64,000 bases of DNA from an uncultured Acetobacteraceae bacterium. Lineage in GTDB: Bacteria > Pseudomonadota > Alphaproteobacteria > Acetobacterales > Acetobacteraceae. The position numbers were made by a program, and so were the translations under genes. The notes under the pieces were generated by a model, which had not been told where the DNA came from, searched no databases, and worked only from the letters and a program-made list of their open reading frames with translations. Shown here piece by piece: positions 2,824 through 63,878 of this stretch; positions within the stretch are counted from its first letter, which is position 1, and each line of letters starts with the position of its first letter. The stretch lies in the NCBI GenBank assembly GCA_964401305.1, contig CAYNYQ010000001.1:98-64097 (forward strand), written 5' to 3'.

Positions 2824-3125
2824 CCAGCTTTCGCAAGCAGCTCGAACGCGCCGGAATCACGGAGGATAAACCACTTCACACGGTTCTCGTCACCGTCATG
2901 CAGGCCAGCGCGGCGGCGGAGAAGCACAGCGAGGCGATGGCGGGACGCGCGGCGGAACTGGCCGTGCGAGCGGTGGAACGCGAGCTGGACCGGATGCTGT
3001 GGCGGGCGCGGTTCGTGGTGTTCATCCGGGGCATGGTGGTTGGCGCGGCGCTGCTCGGTGCTGGTTACGGCGTCGCGAAGTGGGAGGCGGCGGGGTTCAG
3101 GATGCCCGCGTCAATCGTCCGCTAG
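2811..3125 (+). CDS. hypothetical membrane protein (start uncertain)
   Basis: In-frame GTG at 2811 just before the upstream stop (ORF track start is 2763). One hydrophobic helix, FVVFIRGMVVGAALLGAGYGVA. Confidence 0.4.
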   Translation: MDALTSFRKQLERAGITEDKPLHTVLVTVMQASAAAEKHSEAMAGRAAELAVRAVERELDRMLWRARFVVFIRGMVVGAALLGAGYGVAKWEAAGFRMPASIVR

Positions 3126-4240
3126 GCGGTATCGAACAGGCCGATCTGGTCATTTGCCGGAGGCGGAAGATCGGCCAGCGTCATGCCGCTGCGCACGTCC
3201 ACCAGCCCGTGCCCGATGCGCTCGACGGAAAGCGCCACATAATCCGGATTGAGTTCGCAGCCGATGTAACGGCGTCCGTGTTTCAGCGCGACATAGCCGG
3301 TAGTTCCGGAGCCATTGAAAGGGTCAAGCACCAGCCCGCCCTTCGGCGCTCCGGCGAGGATGCAGGGTTCAATGAGGTCAGTAGGAAAGGTGGCGAAGTG
3401 CGCGCCCTTGTAGGGCTTCGTGCTGACCGTCCAGACGGAGCGTCGGTTACGCCAGCCGTTCGGCGCGGCCTGTAAGGACTGGCCGCCCTCGATGCGACTG
3501 CGATGGCGCGAGTAGGTGTCGGAGGCAAGGTCTTTGCGGTCATCGGCGACCTGCGGCTTCCACTGTTCCGCGTTACCCCGTGCGGTGCCATCGGCGTTCA
3601 GATAGGAGAGGCGCGCATCGCGCACGAACCCGTTGCCGCTTGGATGGCTGCTGACAGCGGGCTCTCTGATGGCCTCGTGGTCGTAGTAGTAGCGCGCCGA
3701 CTTGGTCAGCATGAAGATGTACTCGTGCGAGCGCGTACATCGGTCAGTGGTGGAATCCGGCATGGGGTTGGGCTTCGACCAGATGATGTCCTGACGCAGC
3801 CACCAGCCATCGGCCTGCAACGCAAGCGCTACGCGCCATGGGATGCCGATTAGGTCTTTCTGTTTGAGGCCGTCCTGTTTGATGCTACCCGTGCGCGTCT
3901 TCTTATGGGGGTGCGCCGCGATCTGACGTGCGGAGATAACAGAGCGGTCGGCCATCTGGCCAGTACGGCCTTGTGCGCCCCATGATCCAGCGTAGCTGTC
4001 CCCAAGGTTCAGCCATACTGTGCCATCGTCGGCCAACACGTCGCGCACGCAGCGAAACACCTCGACCATCTTGGCCACATAGGCATCGGGCGTTTCTTCC
4101 AAGCCGATCTGGCCGTCGCATCCGTAGTCGCGCAGACCGAAGTATGGGGGCGACGTGACGCAGGTGTTTACCCGCGCACCTTCGGCGGCGAGGCGCTTCA
4201 GCGTGTCACGGCAGTCGCCTTGATAGATTTTGGCATCCAT
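3122..4240 (-). CDS. beta-class DNA methyltransferase, SPPY motif (N4-cytosine or N6-adenine)
   Basis: Internal ATG at 4240 (MDAKIYQGDC). Motif IV TSPPY is N-terminal and motif I VLDPFNGSGTTG is C-terminal, the PF01555-like circular order. The upstream in-frame extension has no support. Confidence 0.85.
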   Translation of the reverse strand: MDAKIYQGDCRDTLKRLAAEGARVNTCVTSPPYFGLRDYGCDGQIGLEETPDAYVAKMVEVFRCVRDVLADDGTVWLNLGDSYAGSWGAQGRTGQMADRSVISARQIAAHPHKKTRTGSIKQDGLKQKDLIGIPWRVALALQADGWWLRQDIIWSKPNPMPDSTTDRCTRSHEYIFMLTKSARYYYDHEAIREPAVSSHPSGNGFVRDARLSYLNADGTARGNAEQWKPQVADDRKDLASDTYSRHRSRIEGGQSLQAAPNGWRNRRSVWTVSTKPYKGAHFATFPTDLIEPCILAGAPKGGLVLDPFNGSGTTGYVALKHGRRYIGCELNPDYVALSVERIGHGLVDVRSGMTLADLPPPANDQIGLFDTA

Positions 4241-17814: not shown

Positions 17815-18522
17815 ATGTCCACCGAGCACCTGGTACCCGAGGACCTCCGGCAGCTCTACCACGTCCGGGAGTGGCGAAACGCCGCCGGCGTGCTTTCCAC
17901 GGCCTGCCCGGATGAGTGGAACGACATTATCGAGATTCTGCGTTCCTTCCGCTTGCTCCGCTCGCAGGTCCTTACGGCGGGCGGCGGCCTGTCTCCCATT
18001 TCGCAGGGGATCAACAGCGCCTTCGACGCGCGGGGGTGGAAGGAGAAGAAGTTCGAGACGCGGATCGTCGTCGACGAGACGGAATACAAGAGCCCGACGC
18101 ATCTGGTCGACTGCTTCAAGGGACGCGTCGCGCTGGAGTTGGAGTGGAATAACAAGGACCCGTTCTACGATCGAGACCTGAACAACTTCCGCCTGCTCTT
18201 CGACCTCCGGGCCATCGACGTTGGTGTCATCCTGACCCGTGCCAGCGAGCTGCAGGGCATCTTCGACAGTCTGGGGAAGGGGGCGAGCTACGGGCCGACC
18301 ACGACGCACCATAGCAAGCTCTGGCCACGGATCGAGGGCGGCGGTGGCGGCGGGTGCCCCGTCCTGACGTTCGCCATCACTCCCGCGCTGTACGTCGATG
18401 ACGGGGAGGAGGCGCTGAGGGCGGCCCTTGCTGCGCGGGAGGAGAGGCTCAGCCGCAGCCGGAGAAGGCGCGGGGGCGTGTCGGCAGCGGCGGGGTCTGA
18501 GGACAATGGCGAATCCGCCTGA
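17815..18522 (+). CDS. BglII/BamHI-fold restriction endonuclease-like protein
   Basis: VDCFKGRVALELEWNNKDPFYDRDLNNF parallels the BglII core DFGKRDTLVEVQFSN (D-x8-E-x-E/Q). ATG at 17815 is preferred. Confidence 0.6.
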   Translation: MSTEHLVPEDLRQLYHVREWRNAAGVLSTACPDEWNDIIEILRSFRLLRSQVLTAGGGLSPISQGINSAFDARGWKEKKFETRIVVDETEYKSPTHLVDCFKGRVALELEWNNKDPFYDRDLNNFRLLFDLRAIDVGVILTRASELQGIFDSLGKGASYGPTTTHHSKLWPRIEGGGGGGCPVLTFAITPALYVDDGEEALRAALAAREERLSRSRRRRGGVSAAAGSEDNGESA

Positions 18523-19192
18523 CAAGGCTCGCATGGGCGTCGGCTTCGCGATGTACGTGCTGGAGCACGAGGTGCGGGACGACCGGTTCGTCCGGATCAT
18601 CGACGATATCGCTCGCCTGATCGCATCGTCGGAGGACGCGTGCGAGCGGGCGGTGGCTTCCGGGAACGACGATTTCGCAGACGCTGTGATCGCCACGGAG
18701 ACGGACTATCTGGAAGACCTGATCGGTACGATCTTCCTGATGCTGCAGACCAAGATTCGACGTGTCGGTGAAGCGGCAATGGTTGTGTCGGACGCGCTGG
18801 AGCGTGGCTATGGCGCGGCGGCGAAGAAGTGGGCCAAGCCGCCGGTCGTGAGAGCCGAAGGCGGGGCGTACAACGGAACGCCGCATAGCCTCGTCGAGCT
18901 GGTCTGGGCGGTGGGGAACTACTTTAAACACCGCGACGAATGGTCGTCTGACGTGTGGACGCCGCCTGCAACCATAACGAAGGGCCTCAAGCAGTCCATC
19001 GCTACCCGAACCGTGGTTCAGAGCGTGGGCGTCGTGGAATCGTCCACCGGCAACATGCGGACCGCACTGGAGTTCTTCGGCGTCGATCCTTACTCATCCT
19101 GCGGCAAGCTGGCTCAGGACGTGCAGGCGTGGGCCGACACCCTGCTTGACGATGCGCGGGCCGCTGCGAAGGCGGCACAGGGAACGCCGTGA
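18506..19192 (+). CDS. hypothetical protein between nuclease and methyltransferase
   Basis: 228 aa. ATG at 18506 with a GAGGA RBS, overlapping the end of the nuclease gene. The only notable motif is VGNYFKHRDEW. Confidence 0.55.
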   Translation: MANPPDKARMGVGFAMYVLEHEVRDDRFVRIIDDIARLIASSEDACERAVASGNDDFADAVIATETDYLEDLIGTIFLMLQTKIRRVGEAAMVVSDALERGYGAAAKKWAKPPVVRAEGGAYNGTPHSLVELVWAVGNYFKHRDEWSSDVWTPPATITKGLKQSIATRTVVQSVGVVESSTGNMRTALEFFGVDPYSSCGKLAQDVQAWADTLLDDARAAAKAAQGTP

Positions 19193-19196
19193 AGGT

Positions 19197-19877
19197 TTAG
19201 TCGGCCTCGGCGTACTGCTGGCGCTCCGCTGCCGAATTGTGGGAGTAGGTGGGCCAGTTCGGCGCGTAGCTCTCGTCGGCCTGGTCGCCCCACACGGTCC
19301 ATCCCTTGCGGGCGCCGCGCGCGAACAGTTCGAGCCGGGGAGTGAAGCTGCATGCCTCAATGATGGGGTAAATCTCGTCTGGCTTGCGGGAGTGCTCGCG
19401 CTTGCGGGTCTGGAGGTAGTTCACCTGCGTCCGGCCGGGATCAAGCGTCCGGGCGTTCTTTCCGCGCACCCCGAAGAGGACCAGCTCGGTCACGTTGCGG
19501 AAATAGAACCCGACGCCGCGCCCGTCGCTGCCGCCGTCCTTCCTGATCTTCCGCCAGACGATGTTGGACTTGTAGTCGAAGCCCCACGCCTTCATCACCG
19601 CCAGTCCCTCGGGGAGGAGAGCGTTCGGCACCCACAGATAGAGGTGTGACGGATCGGCGGCGAGCTGCGAGACCGGCAGCTTGGAGATCGTCGAGACGTC
19701 GAGTGTGCCGTACCGGGACAGGCGGCGGTGTTCCGGCGCCATCTTCCCGGTGCGGTTGATAAACTGCCATGGAGGGTCGGCGAGGATCGTGCCGAACTTC
19801 TTCCCGCCGGCGGCGGCGAGGAGATCGGCGGATGGATCAGGCGCGTTCTGCAGTCGGGACACGGCGTAACTCCACAC
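19197..19877 (-). CDS. MT-A70-family N6-adenine DNA methyltransferase
   Basis: ILADPPWQF (DPPW), NVTELVLFGVRG and HSRKPDE are MT-A70 blocks. GTG start. Confidence 0.85.
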   Translation of the reverse strand: MWSYAVSRLQNAPDPSADLLAAAGGKKFGTILADPPWQFINRTGKMAPEHRRLSRYGTLDVSTISKLPVSQLAADPSHLYLWVPNALLPEGLAVMKAWGFDYKSNIVWRKIRKDGGSDGRGVGFYFRNVTELVLFGVRGKNARTLDPGRTQVNYLQTRKREHSRKPDEIYPIIEACSFTPRLELFARGARKGWTVWGDQADESYAPNWPTYSHNSAAERQQYAEAD

Positions 19878-25926: not shown

Positions 25927-27420
25927 TCAGATGCTCCCCTGCCGAAACTGCGCGGGCATCCACGCCGCCTTCGAGGAGCGCCATGTCTGGCCGCCCTTGA
26001 ACAGCACGGCGTCCACGATGCCCCGGTTGGCACGTCCGCCGTTCCTGAGCGTGGTGAAGTGCGCGGGCAGGACGGGATACTCAATCACCTGCTGCGACGA
26101 GCGGCTGCTTCCGAGATTCCAGTTCTCGCTGCGGCCACGTCCGCCGCCACCGCCCGTTGCGCCCCAGCTATGGTTGCGGTTGTCGCCTTCCCCCTGCCCC
26201 TCGTTCTCGCTGTAGGATTCACGCCACTCTTCGCGCTTGGCGATAGTATCGGCCGCCCACTGGTTCGTATCGACGCAAGAGTTGGCGTGGAAGATTTTTG
26301 TCTGAAAGTTGCCCAGTAGCGCCTTGGCAGTATTCAGCGGGTTGCGGCCGCCCATCTGCTCGGCAACTCCCAAAATATTCTGGGTGAGCCAGACCGTCGC
26401 AGCCCGCGCGCCGCGTGCGGTACTTTGGAATTCCGCGTCGTAGGGCGAGGCGAAGAGATGCCCTTCGTCGGCCCACAGGAACACGGGGCGGCCCCGGCTG
26501 CCGCGCCGCTCGGTGGCGCGCTGCCACAGGTACTTGAAGATGTGCTGCGCGAGATGGCCCGCCTCGTTCCAGACCTTCAGCGGGAAATCGAGGACGATGA
26601 TCGCCCCCTCGTGCGTCATCTCCGGCACGATGGTGAGGTCGGTGCCGAACAGCTCGTGCATCGGCCCGGATAGCAGCGGGGAGAGATCGGCGGACAGCGT
26701 GGCGACCAGGTTGCCCGTGGTGCGCGGATCGGGATTGGGCAGCCGCTTGGTCAGGTAGTCCCGTGCCTGCTCGAAGTCGTGCTGCTTCATGGGATGGACG
26801 GGACCGGCTTTGCACTTCATCAGCGTGGCGTTCATGAAACCGTTCAGGTACGCCATGCCGCTCAGGTCATCCGGCTTCGGCGGGCGCGACTGGATCAGCT
26901 TCAGGAGGTCGGGCAGCGTGATGTCCCCGTAAGCGCACCACAGCACTGCCGAGCCGTGCGCGAGGAACTCGCGCGAGGACTTACCCCAGAAGGGATTGTC
27001 GCCGCCGCCGACGGGCGAGCCGACTTCCCCGGACGCGGTGCGAAGGACATGGGTCAGCACGGCCACGGTGTTGGTGACGGGGTCGGTGTCCGACGCGGCA
27101 GCCATGGCGTAGCGGAGGAAGTTGAAGCGGTAGCGGCCGGAGCCGTCGAAGCGCATCAGGGAGCGCTGGCGACCGGCGAGGCGGCACAGCGCCTCCCAGC
27201 GGTCGGCCTCGTCTGGCTTGGCGCACAGGACGATGCCGCCCCAGCCCGCGCGGGCGAGGGCAAGGGCGATGGCATACCCGCTGGCGCTGGTCTTGCCGGA
27301 GCCGGGGGCCCCGATGATCGCGGTGCCCTCATAGGCATCGCGGACGCGCCACACGTCGCGGCCAAAGCGGAGCAGGGGGGCTTCATGGTGGGAGAGGCAG
27401 GCGCTTGGCCAGAGTCGCAT
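25927..27420 (-). CDS. TraG/VirD4/TraD-like (T4CP-like) P-loop NTPase lacking TM helices
   Basis: Walker A GAPGSGKTS, Walker B RPVFLWADEGHLF, and ARGARAATVWLTQN..GVAEQMGG in the coupling-protein style. The N-terminus is not hydrophobic. Confidence 0.7.
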   Translation of the reverse strand: MRLWPSACLSHHEAPLLRFGRDVWRVRDAYEGTAIIGAPGSGKTSASGYAIALALARAGWGGIVLCAKPDEADRWEALCRLAGRQRSLMRFDGSGRYRFNFLRYAMAAASDTDPVTNTVAVLTHVLRTASGEVGSPVGGGDNPFWGKSSREFLAHGSAVLWCAYGDITLPDLLKLIQSRPPKPDDLSGMAYLNGFMNATLMKCKAGPVHPMKQHDFEQARDYLTKRLPNPDPRTTGNLVATLSADLSPLLSGPMHELFGTDLTIVPEMTHEGAIIVLDFPLKVWNEAGHLAQHIFKYLWQRATERRGSRGRPVFLWADEGHLFASPYDAEFQSTARGARAATVWLTQNILGVAEQMGGRNPLNTAKALLGNFQTKIFHANSCVDTNQWAADTIAKREEWRESYSENEGQGEGDNRNHSWGATGGGGGRGRSENWNLGSSRSSQQVIEYPVLPAHFTTLRNGGRANRGIVDAVLFKGGQTWRSSKAAWMPAQFRQGSI

Positions 27421-27543: not shown

Positions 27544-27996
27544 ATGGCCGGAAAGAAGGATGGCGGGGCGGCTGAAGAGGTCGACACGGCCGCGGCACTG
27601 AGACAGTTGCAGGCGCTTCAGAAGGCTCACCTGACTGCAGGCATAGCGTCCCAGCCCGGCATTGGGTTGGGGATAGGGCTGCTCGCTAAAGCGATGGTGG
27701 CGCTGCTGGGAGGCGGCGTGGGCATAGTTGAGGCAAAGCCGCGCGGCAGGCCAGTCAGCGAGAAGACCGCGTTGGATTTTCAACATGCTCCCGAGGGGAA
27801 GAAGACCTTTGCAGCCAATCTCAAGCGGGAACGACTGCGTGCTGGTTTGGGGCAGGCGGAGTTGGCGGAGCGGGCGGGTCTGAGTCAGTCGCACGTGAGT
27901 CAGCTGGAAAACGCGAAGTGGGGGCCGAGGCTGGACACCGTACAGGCCCTTGCACGCGCCCTCGGGTGCCAAGCTCACGATTTGTTGAAAATGTAG
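27544..27996 (+). CDS. XRE-family HTH regulator with hydrophobic N-terminal segment
   Basis: ATG at 27544. The C-terminal LKRERLRAGLGQAELAERAGLSQSHVSQLENAKWGP is an XRE HTH. The N-terminal part has GIGLGIGLLAKAMVALLGGGVGIV. Divergent from 25927..27420. Confidence 0.7.
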   Translation: MAGKKDGGAAEEVDTAAALRQLQALQKAHLTAGIASQPGIGLGIGLLAKAMVALLGGGVGIVEAKPRGRPVSEKTALDFQHAPEGKKTFAANLKRERLRAGLGQAELAERAGLSQSHVSQLENAKWGPRLDTVQALARALGCQAHDLLKM

Positions 27997-29106: not shown

Positions 29107-29631
29107 CTAGGGCTTGGCCTGTTCGTACAGGTCAGCCTCGGCCTCACGGCGGCGGATGAGGCCGCGCAGCACCTTGCCGCCTGCGCGGTTCCACCGCTTC
29201 ATCTCGGCAGGCACGTCGTCATGGCGGCCTGCGTTGATGCGCTTCAGCATGGTGGACTGCTTCAGAGCGCCGGGGCCTAGATTGAACGTCCACGAGGACA
29301 CGCTGTCATGCTGGAGTGGCCAGAGCGGCACGGTGACAGCGCGGTTCACATAGGCGGAGTGCTTCGCCACGTCCTCGCGCAGTAAGTCCTCAGCGGCCTT
29401 GCCGACAAGCGGAATGGGGTAGTCCCGGCCCTTCTGCATCAGGTGGCCGGTGCCGATCGTGAGATGGCCTGCCGCGTCCCGGTACGGATAGGGGCTGTAT
29501 CCCTCGAATTCGCGGATGAGCGCGATGCCCGCCGGGGTGACGTGGCAGTTGCGCAGGCACTGCTTCACTGGCGCATCGGCAGGAAGCGGCGCGGCGGCGA
29601 TGAAGAGGCTGGCAAGCCATGCCTTAATCAC
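29107..29631 (-). CDS. GH24 (T4-type) lysozyme endolysin with N-terminal signal/SAR-like segment
   Basis: LIREFEGYSPYPYRDAAGHLTIGTGH carries the E-x8-D-x5-T catalytic triad. The hydrophobic N-terminus is MIKAWLASLFIAAAPLPA. Confidence 0.85.
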   Translation of the reverse strand: MIKAWLASLFIAAAPLPADAPVKQCLRNCHVTPAGIALIREFEGYSPYPYRDAAGHLTIGTGHLMQKGRDYPIPLVGKAAEDLLREDVAKHSAYVNRAVTVPLWPLQHDSVSSWTFNLGPGALKQSTMLKRINAGRHDDVPAEMKRWNRAGGKVLRGLIRRREAEADLYEQAKP

Positions 29632-29857
29632 GGCTGGCCTCCTTGCGAACCGCTTCCACCTCCAGCGCGTAGCCGGTGGCTCCTACCCAGTCTTTCACGA
29701 CACAGGATGGCAGGCGCTTGGCCGCGTGTTCCTGCCGCATCCACGTCTGGGTGCAGGTGCTGAGGTGATACGGCTCGGGCAGTGCCGGAATGACCGGGGC
29801 AGGGCAGGAGGCGCTGCACCCGGCAAGGAGGAGAAGGCTAAAAACGGGGAACCGCAT
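29624..29857 (-). CDS. o-spanin (outer-membrane lipoprotein)
   Basis: ATG at 29857. MRFPVFSLLLLAGC lipobox, 77 aa. The start overlaps the 3' end of the i-spanin gene. Confidence 0.65.
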   Translation of the reverse strand: MRFPVFSLLLLAGCSASCPAPVIPALPEPYHLSTCTQTWMRQEHAAKRLPSCVVKDWVGATGYALEVEAVRKEASRD

Positions 29858-30095
29858 AGGTATCAAGCCACTGTAAGAGTTTCTCTTGATCGTCGGATTG
29901 CGGCACGGTGCGGCGCACCTTGGCGCGGGCCTTCTGCGCCTTCTGCTCAACCTTCACCGATTCTACGAACTGGCGGTTGACGCAGGCGGAGGAGCCGTCC
30001 GCACGGCCCTTCACGTACGCGCCGGTCAGCAGCGCCATGAACAGCGCGGCCCCCAGCAAGGCCCGCCCCAGCGGGTTAGCGAGCAGGGCGGGCAT
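29838..30095 (-). CDS. i-spanin candidate
   Basis: 85 aa, with N-terminal TM ALLGAALFMALLTGAYV and a charged periplasmic part. Overlapped architecture with the o-spanin. Confidence 0.6.
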   Translation of the reverse strand: MPALLANPLGRALLGAALFMALLTGAYVKGRADGSSACVNRQFVESVKVEQKAQKARAKVRRTVPQSDDQEKLLQWLDTYAVPRF

Positions 30096-30483
30096 GACGC
30101 TTCTTTTGGGGGGCGCTCCGGGTCACAGCCATGATGGGCTGCATCTCGGCCTTCGCGTCGGCAACGGCGATCTCACGCTTCGCCTGACGCTTCACCGGGT
30201 CGGTGAAGAAGTCGATCAGCGGCGTGGTGGCGCGGTCAATGGCGACAGCGAGGATGACCCAGCCGAACATCTCCGGGCGGAAGGTGATGCCAGCTTCGGT
30301 GGCGTAGGGCTCCATCTGCCACAGCGCATAGCCGTAGAGCGGGATGCGGTAGGTGGCGATCAGCGTCTCGAGGTTGAGGAAGCGGCGGGCCTGATGGGCG
30401 AGGAAGTCGCGCAGCAGGTCACGGGCGGCAACGAGAAGGGCGCGGAACCGGGCCTTCAGTGCATCGCGGGTTTCATCGGTCAT
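30076..30483 (-). CDS. membrane protein in lysis cassette (holin/antiholin candidate)
   Basis: ATG at 30483, one TM (MFGWVILAVAI). The call rests on position upstream of the spanins. Confidence 0.4.
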   Translation of the reverse strand: MTDETRDALKARFRALLVAARDLLRDFLAHQARRFLNLETLIATYRIPLYGYALWQMEPYATEAGITFRPEMFGWVILAVAIDRATTPLIDFFTDPVKRQAKREIAVADAKAEMQPIMAVTRSAPQKKRHARPAR

Positions 30484-30775
30484 ACGTCTCCTTGGGTTCG
30501 GATTTCGGCTGGTAGTCGAGGCGGGTCTCGATGCGCACAAGGCGCTCAATGATGCGGTTCAGGCGATCAGCAATGACGCTATCGCCGCTCCGGCGGTCGT
30601 TCTCAAACTGCTCGATTTTCTCGATGCGCCCTTCGTGATCTTCAAGGCGGCTATCCGCCTTGGCCACCCACCACACGATGCCGCCGGTTTGCAGGAGCAG
30701 GGAGACGATGAGGGCGAGGGGGATCTCTTTGCTGACGTGCCAGCGGCGGCGTTCGGTGTCCGGCTTCTCCGTCAT
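30473..30775 (-). CDS. single-pass membrane protein (holin candidate)
   Basis: 100 aa, TM IPLALIVSLLLQTGGIVWWVA followed by a coiled coil. First gene of the lysis block. Confidence 0.45.
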   Translation of the reverse strand: MTEKPDTERRRWHVSKEIPLALIVSLLLQTGGIVWWVAKADSRLEDHEGRIEKIEQFENDRRSGDSVIADRLNRIIERLVRIETRLDYQPKSEPKETYDR

Positions 30776-60720: not shown

Positions 60721-61025
60721 ATAGCCTCACGATCTGCCAGCACGCTTTTGCTGGCGTCGAAGTTCGCGGCAGCGGTTTCAATCTCAGCCTTCTGACGCTG
60801 GCGTTGCTCCCAAATGACCTTGATGCATTCTGCCTGAGCGATCAGGCCACTCACTAGTGTGTCCAGCTGAGCCTGATCGACATGCTCCCCGAAGAAGGTC
60901 ATACGGCGCTGTATGGTGCCCATGGCGCGGGTCGCAACCATCTCCATCTCGGAAATGGCCATGGCCACGTGATGCTTCTCAACGGCGTCGCGCGCGGTGA
61001 AATACTCTGAAGCGGAGAATGTCAT
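60714..61025 (-). CDS. hypothetical protein
   Basis: 103 aa with an ATG start. Confidence 0.5.
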   Translation of the reverse strand: MTFSASEYFTARDAVEKHHVAMAISEMEMVATRAMGTIQRRMTFFGEHVDQAQLDTLVSGLIAQAECIKVIWEQRQRQKAEIETAAANFDASKSVLADREAMC

Positions 61026-61216
61026 TAGCGGCCTCTCTCGGTGACGAAGTGGCCGGTGCGCGGGTCATAGACGCGATGCGCCGCGCCCTTCTCCGCCTCG
61101 ATCTGCCGGTGCGTGTCAGCGACGATGGCGAGCGCCAGCGCGAGGCCGATCAGCAGCGCGAAAGCGGCAAGGGCAACTTCTTCGCGTCGCTTCCATGCCA
61201 TGTGTAAGAACTCCAT
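61025..61216 (-). CDS. small membrane protein, first gene of leftward early operon
   Basis: ATG preceded by AAGGAGGA. TM VALAAFALLIGLALALAIVA. Confidence 0.5.
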   Translation of the reverse strand: MEFLHMAWKRREEVALAAFALLIGLALALAIVADTHRQIEAEKGAAHRVYDPRTGHFVTERGR

Positions 61217-61240
61217 AAATCCTCCTTGTTAAAATCTCGC

Positions 61241-61293
61241 TTGCACGTAAACAAACGATAGCGTAATAATAGCCGCGAGAATTCTTAATTCAA
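61241..61293. promoter_or_regulatory. divergent promoter pair with overlapping -10 boxes
   Basis: Plus strand: TTGCAC (61241) - 17 nt - TAATAA (61264). Minus strand: TTGAAT (61293..61288) - 16 nt - TATTAT (61271..61266). This is the only strongly AT-rich stretch between the two operons. Confidence 0.45.
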
Positions 61294-61300
61294 GCACAAA

Positions 61301-61588
61301 ATGAGCAAATACTTAGCCGATGATGAGTTGATCTCCGAGAAGCAGATGGATGCCGCTCTCGGGCTCCTGCGCTGGACAGATGAGGGGTTAGCTCACGTCG
61401 TCGGCGTGGATCGCAAGAGCATCGTCCACCTCCGCAATACGCCGCCGGTGCGCACCAAGATGGACCCGCGCCGGAAGCGTCTGCTGCGCCGCATCGGCAC
61501 CGCTCTCCGCGAGCACGTGCGCTTCCTGCGAAGCGGGGGCGTCGAACCAGTCAAACAGCCCAGGGGAGGAATCAATGGGAGTTCTTAA
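61301..61588 (+). CDS. HTH-like regulator, first gene of rightward operon
   Basis: 95 aa. LLRWTDEGLAHVVGVDRKSIVHLRN looks like a helix-turn-helix. Confidence 0.5.
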   Translation: MSKYLADDELISEKQMDAALGLLRWTDEGLAHVVGVDRKSIVHLRNTPPVRTKMDPRRKRLLRRIGTALREHVRFLRSGGVEPVKQPRGGINGSS

Positions 61589-61916
61589 TTTCAAATCGTC
61601 GAAGCGGGTGGCGCGTGCCAACCGGAAGGCCGTGACCAAGCGGGAGTTCTCCGGGCGGGTCTTGGAGCATGAGCAGTTGCCGGACGGGTACGCATACCGG
61701 CACAGCACGAAGGGTCGGCGCGTTCGCCACGACGGCGGCGACGACATCGCCTACCGCAACGCGCTGCTGGACCTGCTGGCGATCTCCATGCGGGCAGCGG
61801 CGCGCGAGCGTGTCATCGACACCGGAGCGTTCAACCTGTTCCGCATCGAGCGTGCCAAGGTGAAGCGCCTGCGCCGCAAGGAGCGGAACGCAAACCTCGC
61901 AGCACGTGCTGCATAA
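61575..61916 (+). CDS. basic hypothetical protein
   Basis: 113 aa, overlapping the upstream gene by 14 nt. Confidence 0.45.
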   Translation: MGVLNFKSSKRVARANRKAVTKREFSGRVLEHEQLPDGYAYRHSTKGRRVRHDGGDDIAYRNALLDLLAISMRAAARERVIDTGAFNLFRIERAKVKRLRRKERNANLAARAA

Positions 61917-61938
61917 CCATTAACAGGGGGAGGAACCC

Positions 61939-62073
61939 ATGAGGGAATATCTGCACATCATACTGGCCACCGGCCTCGTCGCGCTCGTCGTCGGATGGAC
62001 GGCTGGCTACACCGCGAACTCGGCGGAGCGTCCGATGAAGGGACGCATCGCGCTGTCCGATCTGCGCGAGTAG
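61939..62073 (+). CDS. small membrane protein (not in ORF track)
   Basis: ATG at 61939 preceded by GGGGGAGGA. MREYLHIILATGLVALVVGWTAGYTANSAERPMKGRIALSDLRE. Confidence 0.4.
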   Translation: MREYLHIILATGLVALVVGWTAGYTANSAERPMKGRIALSDLRE

Positions 62074-62112
62074 CGCGGCTCAAATTCAAGCCTTTCACAA
62101 CAGGGAGTTTTT

Positions 62113-63285
62113 ATGAATGAAGGTTCTATCATCAAAAAGGTAGCGGTCGGAGCGGTCGTCATCATCGCGGTCATCGTCGCCGCGCTGTCGTCCATGCTCT
62201 TCCAGACCAACGACGCCGGGTACGTGCAAGTGAAGCAGGCCGCCGGAACGGGCGAGATGACGGTGCGCACCACGCCGGGCGTCTATGCGCAGATGTTCGG
62301 TGACATCCACGAGTACAAGATTTCGGACGTCTACGATTTCAACACGGACGATGAGCAGATCATCGTTCGGTTCAACGATGCCGCCACGGCACGCATCTCC
62401 GGCCAGATCAAGTACCGGCTTCCCGTGACGGCGGCGGGCATCCTCAAGATTCACGAGGATTTCCGCAGCTTCGAGGCGGTGCAGTCCGATCTCGTGCGGC
62501 AGGTCGTCGCGGCGAGCCTGAAGCAATCTGCCACGCACTTCGGCGCGGAGGAGGTCTATTCGACCCGCCGCTCGGACTTCATCGACCTGGTCAACGCTCA
62601 GATCAAGAGCGGCATCTTCGCCACGTCCTATACCGAGCGGGTCCGCAAGGACGAGGACGGCAACAACTTCATCCAGCGCATCGTGGCGGTGCGCCTGAAC
62701 GAGGACGGCAAGCCGATCATCTCCGAGCCGTCGGCGTTCGACCGCTACGATGTGGACCTGATCCAGCTCGTCATCAACGACATCGATTTCGACGACAAGA
62801 CCGACGAGCTGATCGCGAAGCGCAAAGAGGCCGAGCAGGAGCAGGTCGTCGCCAAGGCGAAGGCCGAGCGTGCCAAGCAGGACGCCATCACCGCGCAGGA
62901 GCAGGGTAAGGCCAACGTCGCCATCGCCGAGGCCGAGGCGCTGGTGATCAAGAAGCGCGCCGTGATCGAGGCCGAGAAGGAACGCGAGGTCGCGGAGCAG
63001 CAGGCGCTGAAGGCCGAAGAGGAGAAGAAGGCCATCATCGCTCGCGGCGAGGCCGAGGCCCGCGCCAACGCGCTGAAGGTGACGGCTGGCCTGACCCCTC
63101 AGGAGAAGGCCCAGTTCGACAAGGAGACCGCGATCGGTGTCGCGGCCGAGCTGGCCAAGGTCCAGTTGCCGAAGCTCATGGTGATCGGCGGGAGCGGGTC
63201 CCAGTCCGGGCCGGTCAACCCGTTCGATGCGGTGGGGCTGGAGTCCTTCATCCGCATCAGCAAGGGGCTGAGCAAACATGAGTAG
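62113..63285 (+). CDS. SPFH/Band-7 (flotillin/prohibitin-like) membrane protein
   Basis: N-terminal TM VAVGAVVIIAVIVAALSSMLF and an SPFH-like core (GYVQVKQ....GVYAQMFGDI...). A long AEAEA/EAEKE flotillin-type coiled coil follows. Confidence 0.75.
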   Translation: MNEGSIIKKVAVGAVVIIAVIVAALSSMLFQTNDAGYVQVKQAAGTGEMTVRTTPGVYAQMFGDIHEYKISDVYDFNTDDEQIIVRFNDAATARISGQIKYRLPVTAAGILKIHEDFRSFEAVQSDLVRQVVAASLKQSATHFGAEEVYSTRRSDFIDLVNAQIKSGIFATSYTERVRKDEDGNNFIQRIVAVRLNEDGKPIISEPSAFDRYDVDLIQLVINDIDFDDKTDELIAKRKEAEQEQVVAKAKAERAKQDAITAQEQGKANVAIAEAEALVIKKRAVIEAEKEREVAEQQALKAEEEKKAIIARGEAEARANALKVTAGLTPQEKAQFDKETAIGVAAELAKVQLPKLMVIGGSGSQSGPVNPFDAVGLESFIRISKGLSKHE

Positions 63286-63445
63286 CCGGCTCGTCGTCTA
63301 TCTGGTCGAGGGGGTAATCGCCCTCTCGATCATCTGGCTCCTGTTCAAGCTGGTCTACTTCCGCGTCTTCCCGCGCGGCGTGGTGAACGCCGTGAAGCTC
63401 CGCAAGGCGGGCGAGAAGTACGAGCGTGACCTGAGGAAGCGGTGA
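63278..63445 (+). CDS. small membrane protein (not in ORF track)
   Basis: The ATG at 63278 overlaps the SPFH 3' end. MSSRLVVYLVEGVIALSIIWLLFKLVYFRVF... followed by a basic tail. Confidence 0.45.
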   Translation: MSSRLVVYLVEGVIALSIIWLLFKLVYFRVFPRGVVNAVKLRKAGEKYERDLRKR

Positions 63446-63681
63446 CCCCCGGCGTCGTCTGGCATCGCATCCCGCCTGAGTGGCAGGCGAAGATCCGCCA
63501 TGCGGTCATCGCTGCCGGTGTGGCGGGCCTGACGGTGCTGGTCGGCGACATCATCCGTGGCGTCGATCAGCCGCCGCCGCGCCACCGGGGGCCGGACGAT
63601 CCGCCGCCGGGAAGCCGCACCTACAGCCACCGGTACGACGGGCGGACGCAGGGGCAGAACCATTGGAAGCGGAGGGAGTGA
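63442..63681 (+). CDS. small membrane protein with Pro-rich tail
   Basis: The GTG overlaps the upstream stop (GTGA). TM IRHAVIAAGVAGLTVLVGDII. Confidence 0.4.
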   Translation: MTPGVVWHRIPPEWQAKIRHAVIAAGVAGLTVLVGDIIRGVDQPPPRHRGPDDPPPGSRTYSHRYDGRTQGQNHWKRRE

Positions 63682-63878
63682 TGGAATACCTACTCGGAAT
63701 CTACCTCCTCGCCATCGGCGCGCTGCTGGAGCGCACCTTCGACCACCTCAACGCAGCGGAGCTGGCGCAGGCAAGGAGCCAGCCCTTGTTGCTGGTCACG
63801 GCCTATGTCGCGCTGGCCGTCACCGTCCCCTTCGTCATCGCTGGCGAGCTGGTGCGCAGCATGACGGGGCGGCGCTAG
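63681..63878 (+). CDS. two-pass small membrane protein
   Basis: ATG at 63681 preceded by GGAGGGAG, overlapping the upstream stop by 1 nt. Two hydrophobic helices. Confidence 0.5.
   Translation: MEYLLGIYLLAIGALLERTFDHLNAAELAQARSQPLLLVTAYVALAVTVPFVIAGELVRSMTGRR

Follow-up and report, generated by a model that had tools for sequence, protein, structure and literature searches.

The 64,000-bp window analysed here (the whole stretch of DNA, from contig CAYNYQ010000001.1 of an uncultured Acetobacteraceae bacterium) is part of a 65,088-bp circular element and carries, on the plus strand at 61301-63878, a unit of seven open reading frames (ORFs) in which the gene for a 390-aa SPFH/Band_7 protein of PHROG 11908 (62113-63285) is directly followed by a gene for a small membrane protein, p55 (63278-63445). 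In the 55-aa p55, an N-terminal transmembrane (TM) helix is combined with the motif YFRVFPR and a basic tail, and 12 of its 55 residues are Lys or Arg. The rightward unit opens with p95 (61301-61588), a small basic protein of 95 aa with an isoelectric point (pI) of 10.9, followed by p113 (61575-61916; 113 aa, pI 11.4, 28 Lys and Arg), whose gene overlaps that of p95 by 14 nt and is preceded by a GGAGG Shine-Dalgarno motif, and by p44 (61939-62073; 44 aa), which has a single N-terminal TM helix and lies directly 5' of the SPFH gene. Downstream of p55 are p79 (63442-63681), a lineage-specific protein of 79 aa with a GTG start, one TM helix and a Pro/Arg-rich tail, and p65 (63681-63878), an ORFan of 65 aa read as having two TM helices. 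These seven ORFs, with a basic protein (p113) in second place, agree in position with an initial annotation made from the letters of the window, as do the start/stop overlaps at 63278, 63442 and 63681, which measure 8 nt (SPFH-p55), 4 nt (p55-p79) and 1 nt (p79-p65); p44 and the SPFH gene are separated by a gap of 39 nt, with no overlap.

All seven ORFs combined a GC content at third codon positions (GC3) of 0.75-0.91 (0.82 for p113) with a low GC2, the same pattern as in the capsid gene of the element, and Shine-Dalgarno motifs were recognised by eye ahead of p113, p44, the SPFH gene, p55, p79 and p65. A 394-aa antisense ORF is spurious, because its codon-position GC pattern is the inverse of that of the seven ORFs. 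With a Kyte-Doolittle window of at least 1.6 as the threshold for a TM call, the scan flagged an N-terminal TM helix in the SPFH protein and one TM window each in p44, p55, p79 and p65; the second TM helix of p65 was read by eye.

Profile searches assigned the 390-aa protein to Pfam Band_7 (PF01145; 51.2 bits against a cutoff of 23.6, E=2.1e-13, residues 36-257) and to phrog_11908, a family of unassigned function (3e-43), with a weaker match to phrog_200, which is labelled 'lipoprotein' (5e-18). The AlphaFold2 (AF2) model, built with 29 homologues and having a mean predicted local distance difference test score (pLDDT) of 79.6, comprised a TM helix (residues 3-26), an SPFH fold (30-221), an unbroken coiled-coil helix of about 97 residues (CC1, 228-324), a second helix (CC2, 329-347) and a C-terminal helix (370-386). 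As modelled, the protein shows the complete architecture of cage-forming SPFH proteins. Foldseek ranked HflC first (7vhq_G, 5e-9), followed by prohibitin, HflK, stomatin, QmcA (8z5g) and flotillin, with E values from 5e-9 to 2e-5; these top families all form cages, and the best viral structure matches were other phage SPFH proteins. A profile search of PDB sequences returned HflC only, weakly (E=0.002). The identification as an SPFH/Band-7 protein with an N-terminal TM helix and a long coiled coil was thereby borne out by both the Band_7 match and the AF2 helix. The additional label 'flotillin-type' fared less well; it described the coiled-coil SPFH architecture correctly, but there was no flotillin C-terminal domain (Pfam Flot; Band_7 was the only match at E<=1), the fold matched HflC and prohibitin better than flotillin, and the predicted topology is opposite to the cytoplasmic orientation of flotillins. 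No NCBIfam family, including the HflK and HflC models, matched any protein of the unit at E<=0.1, and no second Band_7 gene was found in the unit or among the precomputed Pfam hits covering the genome.

The orientation of the protein was assessed from the Lys and Arg residues flanking the TM helix in 101 homologues, of which 50 were richer in the N-terminal flank and 23 in the C-terminal flank. Because these residues precede the TM helix in most homologues, and also because PHROG 200 is labelled 'lipoprotein' and a Vi01-like phage protein has been annotated as 'SPFH ... lipoprotein' (PMC10892097), the comparison suggests an N-in orientation with the SPFH domain facing the periplasm, as in HflK/C.

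Searches with the SPFH protein recovered 707 homologues at E<1e-5. In total, 134 loci carrying a homologue were gathered from viral contigs, metagenome-assembled genomes and database records; a scan of genome contigs with the single protein as query returned nothing, and 54 loci came from rescanning with an alignment. Among the 11 loci of the closest clade (at least 57% identity), 10 have a p55 homologue directly 3' of the SPFH gene, its start lying approximately -17 to +56 nt from the SPFH stop, and these homologues share the TM helix, a YF(R/K)VFPR motif and the basic tail. A phmmer search with p55 against 1.8 billion representatives gave only three matches. The nearest named relative of the element is the 100.9-kb plasmid pSR-4 of Skermanella rosea (Azospirillaceae), in which an XRE-type helix-turn-helix (HTH) gene is followed by the SPFH gene (81% identity), a gene for a 62-aa p55 homologue (59% identity) and one for an unrelated 293-aa protein. 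The nucleotide block of 79% identity between pSR-4 and the window (62174-63415) covers essentially the SPFH and p55 genes alone, its right edge falling about 30 nt short of the p55 end, while a type II restriction-modification pair, different from the element's own, adjoins the cassette in pSR-4. The region had no megablast match among phage records.

Of the small ORFs in the unit, p55 alone accompanies the SPFH gene in other loci, and no conserved neighbour other than a small TM partner was detected among 1,065 neighbour proteins in 786 clusters. A Pfam scan of 150 representatives of these clusters likewise found no enriched family (helicase domains in three members, SLT in two). At the level of gene order and sequence conservation, these comparisons show that SPFH and p55 form a two-gene membrane cassette within an operon of lineage-specific small membrane proteins, and that the pair moves as a cassette between phages and plasmids; its accessory nature follows from the lack of any other conserved neighbour and from the discrete DNA block in common with pSR-4.

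Small membrane proteins also accompany more distant homologues. A same-strand small TM ORF adjoins 54 of 80 non-redundant SPFH genes, compared with 12.6% of control genes (those of at least 250 aa from the same loci), and in 87 non-redundant loci 66% of the small genes at position -1 encode a TM helix, compared with 19% of those five or more genes away; the loci are phylogenetically non-independent, which inflates the P-values of these enrichments, but the effect is large. Positions -2 and -3 showed a mild enrichment of TM proteins. In the distant relatives, the small single-pass TM protein is encoded directly upstream of the SPFH gene and not downstream, and it belongs to at least two further families unrelated to p55, one in which a KKAWKK-type charged helix comes after the TM helix and one, in Bacteroidota and crAss-like phages, with the C-terminus IPFYY(F/W); sequence comparison thus places the partners in at least three unrelated families overall. 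Cultured phages have the same arrangement, with gp92 (63 aa) preceding the SPFH gene gp91 in crAss001 and pVp-1_0096 (52 aa) preceding pVp-1_0097 in pVp-1. NfeD was considered as an identity for the partners and rejected, since p44, p55, p79 and p65 had no Pfam match to NfeD (PF01957) at E<=1 and partners of 44-80 aa are too short for its oligonucleotide/oligosaccharide-binding fold domain.

The coupled chain of four small TM proteins described in the initial annotation therefore stands as ORFs with three overlaps; it is not a conserved system, for p55 alone is kept. Likewise, the expected co-occurrence of small TM genes with SPFH genes was found for the class of protein, but p44, p79 and p65 themselves had no homologues at those positions. 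This bears on the alternative to a larger system, namely that p44, p79 and p65, and with them p95 and p113, are unrelated lineage-specific filler genes that share a transcript with SPFH and p55, so that no five-protein system exists. No homologue of any of these five proteins was found in pSR-4 or in any related SPFH locus examined, the pSR-4 block stops short of the genes that follow p55, p65 matched only itself among 5.8 billion proteins, and p95 had a single homologue in the same set. Searches with p65 and p95 thus returned essentially nothing; small TM proteins, however, evolve too rapidly for homology to decide the matter. The tight translational coupling also speaks against mere filler, as does the position of p44, which occupies the -1 site held by a small TM protein in most related loci, without sequence homology to those partners. 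We consider the filler explanation to fall slightly short of an even chance. It leaves SPFH and p55 together, and for that pair we put the probability that it consists of an SPFH cage protein and its own mini partner at roughly 0.9.

A close comparison for such a pair is provided by the SPFH-NfeD operons (QmcA-YbbJ, FloA-NfeD and YqiJ-YqiK), in which an SPFH gene is likewise tightly linked to, and co-transcribed with, that of a dedicated small membrane protein. In contrast to these, the partners described here are single-pass proteins of 44-80 aa from at least three unrelated families, all shorter than an NfeD domain requires and, for p44 and p55, with no NfeD match. QmcA forms a cage on the cytoplasmic side of the membrane (PMC13086221), whereas that of the phage SPFH protein is predicted to be periplasmic.

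The unit lies downstream of an AT-rich divergent intergenic region of 84 bp (61217-61300), which separates p95 from a 63-aa gene on the minus strand (61025-61216) and contains GAGAATTCTTAATT. The latter is one of three copies of the motif G(A/G)(A/G)TTCTTA(ATT) (repeats D12, D17 and I20), which lie where the first leftward gene begins (61205-61214, inverted), just 5' of the p95 ATG (61279-61290) and at the start of p113 (61578-61590). The first two copies form an inverted pair that brackets the divergent promoter region, and the three copies are possible operator sites. One sigma-70-like match was found in the divergent region, on the minus strand. The AF2 model of p95 was a four-helix bundle (pLDDT 65) whose weak Foldseek matches (E 0.2-1) were mostly XRE/Cro/434-repressor-type HTH proteins, C-proteins or HipB; it had no Pfam or PHROG match, and PDB sequence searches with p95 and p113 were uninformative. 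The model points to p95 as probably a Cro/XRE-type HTH regulator, so that the earlier description of the first protein as HTH-like agrees with the predominance of 434 repressor/Cro-type folds among the matches but lacks a Pfam match and a confident model.

All structural and lysis genes are on the opposite strand to the SPFH unit, as the initial annotation had observed in stating that it is transcribed opposite to the lytic genes. The further step of calling it a lysogeny-side operon is not established. The element has the look of a phage-plasmid, the strongest candidate for a CI-like repressor (HTH_3; PHROG 3/4 'transcriptional repressor') is encoded 34 kb away at 27544-27996, and the rightward unit, which opens with a small and weakly Cro-like HTH protein and points toward repA, could equally resemble a lambda PR-type early operon as a PRM-type one. 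In the element as in pSR-4, the cassette follows an HTH gene within a maintenance or regulatory region, and its expression in the carrier state is therefore plausible.

Homologues of the SPFH protein are common in virulent and jumbo phages. The protein is 31-32% identical to that of virulent crAss001 over 94% of its length and 27-29% identical to those of virulent T5-like vibriophages over about two-thirds. The crAss001 gene has the early (TROVE) module on one side and the middle (replication) module on the other and is outside the late one (PMC8375218), and in other contigs of about 65 kb it lies among primase and helicase genes. The wider set of phage proteins in PHROG 11908 and PHROG 200 (crAss001 gp91, pVp-1 gp0097 and that of Aeromonas phage 1233) belongs to the same family at 27-32% identity, and in crAss001 and pVp-1 a small TM gene is directly upstream; in contrast to the present case, the carriers are virulent and the genes sit in early or middle modules, whereas the present cassette is borne by a temperate-looking phage-plasmid and has its conserved partner, p55, on the downstream side. 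Since homologues sit in virulent phages, among them crAss001 and the T5-like vibriophages, the tuning of lysis and lysogeny, which the initial annotation had proposed, cannot be the general role of the family. No paper assigning a function to a phage SPFH protein was found in the literature, in which such proteins are mentioned at the level of annotation, and in agreement with the initial annotation, which could place the gene set in no named system, neither PADLOC nor NCBIfam gave a match.

How the cassette might act can be outlined from the architecture. The SPFH protein would insert N-in, so that, as in HflK/C, its SPFH domain and coiled coil face the periplasm, and would form a homo-oligomeric dome above a patch of inner membrane. 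The partner p55, N-out with a cytoplasmic basic tail, would sit at or inside the ring through TM-TM contacts, and the cage would corral an inner-membrane client and so condition the envelope of the carrying or infected cell. On this scheme, we tentatively favour membrane-level protection or exclusion, directed against the entry of incoming phage DNA or against membrane-targeting abortive effectors, over tuning of a lambda-type CII/FtsH pathway; exclusion and abortive infection had also been raised as hypotheses in the initial annotation, and the probability that we attach to the proposed function is about 0.3. An early or middle position in virulent phages fits exclusion or protection that acts before lysis. 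Lambda rexAB, T4 imm and sp, and T5 llp are membrane exclusion genes expressed from the prophage or early in infection, and the likeness to them is one of logic only, in that accessory membrane proteins lie beside a regulator or in early regions; they have no sequence or structural relationship to the SPFH cassette.

Several observations weigh against protection or exclusion. The comparative data indicate no client and no phenotype, none of the seven proteins matched PADLOC-DB 2.0 at E<=0.1, and defence or anti-defence genes showed no recurrent association with the SPFH gene in related loci. The positive-inside signal on which the orientation is based is modest, and a dome over a small patch would not obviously block entry unless a specific factor were sequestered. 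The broader proposal that PHROG 11908-type SPFH proteins and their interchangeable single-pass mini partners constitute an undescribed two-component membrane system, an exclusion or counter-defence device whose periplasm-facing cage sequesters FtsH or a factor of DNA entry or transport, is in our view unlikely. If it were true, virulent phages, phage-plasmids and plasmids alike would use an SPFH protein and a mini partner to control or shield the inner membrane.

Next to protection or exclusion stands the possibility that the SPFH protein mimics HflK/C, with a homo-oligomeric cage that captures host FtsH or another membrane protease and changes how fast membrane proteins or phage regulators (CII/CIII/Xis-like, or Rep) are turned over; a temperate carrier would thereby tune a lysis-lysogeny or plasmid-maintenance decision, the leading idea of the initial annotation. 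The resemblance to E. coli HflK/HflC is considerable, with an N-terminal TM helix, an SPFH domain, a long coiled-coil helix and a C-terminal helix, the predicted N-in, periplasm-facing topology, and HflC as the top match of both Foldseek and the profile search; the best matches, HflC, HflK and prohibitin, are protease-associated cages. The pairing of SPFH proteins with membrane proteases is also the best-established function of the family (PMC13086221), and here as in pSR-4 the gene lies in a regulatory or replication region beside an HTH gene. In contrast to E. coli, the protein is encoded by a single phage- or plasmid-borne gene and not by a paralogous hflK-hflC pair, is only about 15% identical, has a CC1 of about 97 residues and gave no NCBIfam HflK/HflC match. 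The structural match to HflC is only marginally above those to stomatin, QmcA and flotillin, the sequence similarity is as weak as noted above, no CII/CIII-like gene was identified, and the virulent and jumbo phages in which the family is common have no lysogeny decision to tune. We regard a mimic of HflK/C as rather unlikely.

A role in membrane integrity or lysis timing appears less probable still and is in our judgement quite improbable. The cage and the small TM partners would stabilise an energised inner membrane during infection or restrain holin-like p79 and p65, thereby delaying lysis or countering membrane-depolarising host defences. In keeping with this, the SPFH gene is surrounded by genes for small TM proteins, p65 has by eye the N-in/C-in two-TM layout of a holin, p79 gave a weak match to phrog_1356 'holin' (E=0.004), TM proteins are slightly over-represented at positions -2 and -3, isolated Acb2/Tad1 and Tad2 neighbours occur, and in crAss001 the SPFH gene is two genes from a peptidoglycan hydrolase gene and next to that of a 2-TM protein. 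However, neither p79 nor p65 accompanies the SPFH gene in other loci, the anti-defence and hydrolase neighbours do not recur, and a complete canonical lysis cassette is located 32 kb away on the other strand. The holin and endolysin of crAss001 are late genes elsewhere in its genome (PMC8375218). That the unit might itself be the lysis cassette was rejected, since the lysozyme and spanin genes are at 29107-30775 on the minus strand.

The neighbours just mentioned come from a few other phages, in which genes for VWA with an Acb2/Tad1 hairpin, TROVE/VWA or Tad2-like proteins were found near the SPFH gene (L144, 4865-5824; L145, 4626-5942; L146, 8332-8592; L141, which is crAss001, 233-1651); a TROVE protein is encoded a few genes from the SPFH gene in both crAss001 and one 65.9-kb contig. 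Jackhmmer searches placed the TROVE, VWA, Acb2/Tad1 and Tad2 neighbours in single loci only, with no recurrence in the other ~130 loci. SPFH, TROVE and VWA proteins together recall components of the eukaryotic vault particle, and the major vault protein (MVP) was among the fold matches; a vault-like arrangement was dropped from consideration, as the TROVE/VWA association was non-recurrent and none was present in this genome.

SPFH proteins organise membranes in all kinds of organisms, but the functions of the bacterial ones are still largely obscure, and phage SPFH proteins occur in crAss001 and in T5-like, T4-like, Vi01-like and jumbo phages, none of them characterised. That SPFH proteins are annotated in many phages and form a PHROG family was already known; the NfeD-less mini-partner cassette and its carriage by a phage-plasmid are new, a modest variant. 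A fixed mini partner in place of NfeD, combined with a mobile two-gene cassette, makes for a small unit, about 1.3 kb, on which the action of a viral SPFH cage can be tested. A function found there would introduce a new class of mechanism, either exclusion and counter-defence or control of a host protease; if nothing were found, the cassette would be one more accessory membrane gene.

The element that carries the cassette was closed into a circle by overlaying one Logan contig on the window, which lacks 1,088 bp of it (L001 11889-12976), and the exact SPFH protein was present on 19 Logan contigs, mostly of about 65.1 kb; the circle itself is represented by 17-19 contigs of that length. The minus-strand series that starts from 61216 encodes exonuclease-like proteins (PHROG 7838 and 10477), SSB and NinB and continues with TerS, TerL, portal, protease, capsid and tape-measure proteins, a GDSL lipase and the lysis cassette. 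The latter (29107-30775) comprises a 100-aa TM protein, a 135-aa protein, an 85-aa i-spanin-like protein, a 77-aa o-spanin-like lipoprotein with the lipobox LAGC and a 174-aa Phage_lysozyme protein with a hydrophobic N-terminus like that of signal-arrest-release (SAR) endolysins. The circle also has plasmid-type genes, encoding RepA_C, ParA, MobA/MobL-like, TrwC-like and ArdC proteins, restriction-modification enzymes and a 497-aa TraG-D_C protein resembling type IV coupling proteins (25927-27420, minus strand). No integrase hit was on record among the precomputed Pfam hits, which cover the whole circle. Since a full set of siphovirus-type structural and lysis genes is combined with repA, parA and relaxase-like genes and with no integrase hit, the gene content indicates that the element is probably a phage-plasmid and not an integrated prophage, and it may be mobilisable. 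Its relative pSR-4 has a capsid gene of 52% identity, the same exonuclease, SSB and NinB genes and a full type IV secretion system. The restriction-modification cargo of the element includes a BglII-like endonuclease near an MT-A70 methyltransferase and, elsewhere, a separate N6_N4 methyltransferase (17815-19862 and 3122-4240).

Three direct copies and one inverted copy of an iteron-like 16-mer, CTTGGACTCTTCTCAC, lie in the 220-bp gap 5' of repA (genome 64372-64544; L001 12260-12432), with one further copy inside repA and one after it (L001 12994-13009 and 13393-13408), which suggests an iteron-controlled replicon in which repA has its own promoter. Between the SPFH unit and these iterons, a plus-strand gene (genome 64103-64360; L001 11991-12248) encodes a protein of 85 aa whose N-terminus (..SPALAC) resembles a signal or lipoprotein sequence and which has a bacterial SH3 domain (SH3_3/SH3_4, E ~1e-11). 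The rightward unit probably ends near 63878, because repA has its own iteron region and because a minus-strand ORF of 68 aa (63835-64041) converges on p65, overlapping its 3' end by 44 nt. This ORF had better coding statistics than the plus-strand 56-aa ORF of the assembly's gene caller; it had no Pfam or PHROG match and no homologue in the related loci examined. Its product is Cys-rich, with CxC/CPxC motifs, and contains the peptide LDIPTFLRR, which we take to resemble the conserved C-terminal peptide of FtsZ (DIPAFLRR/K).

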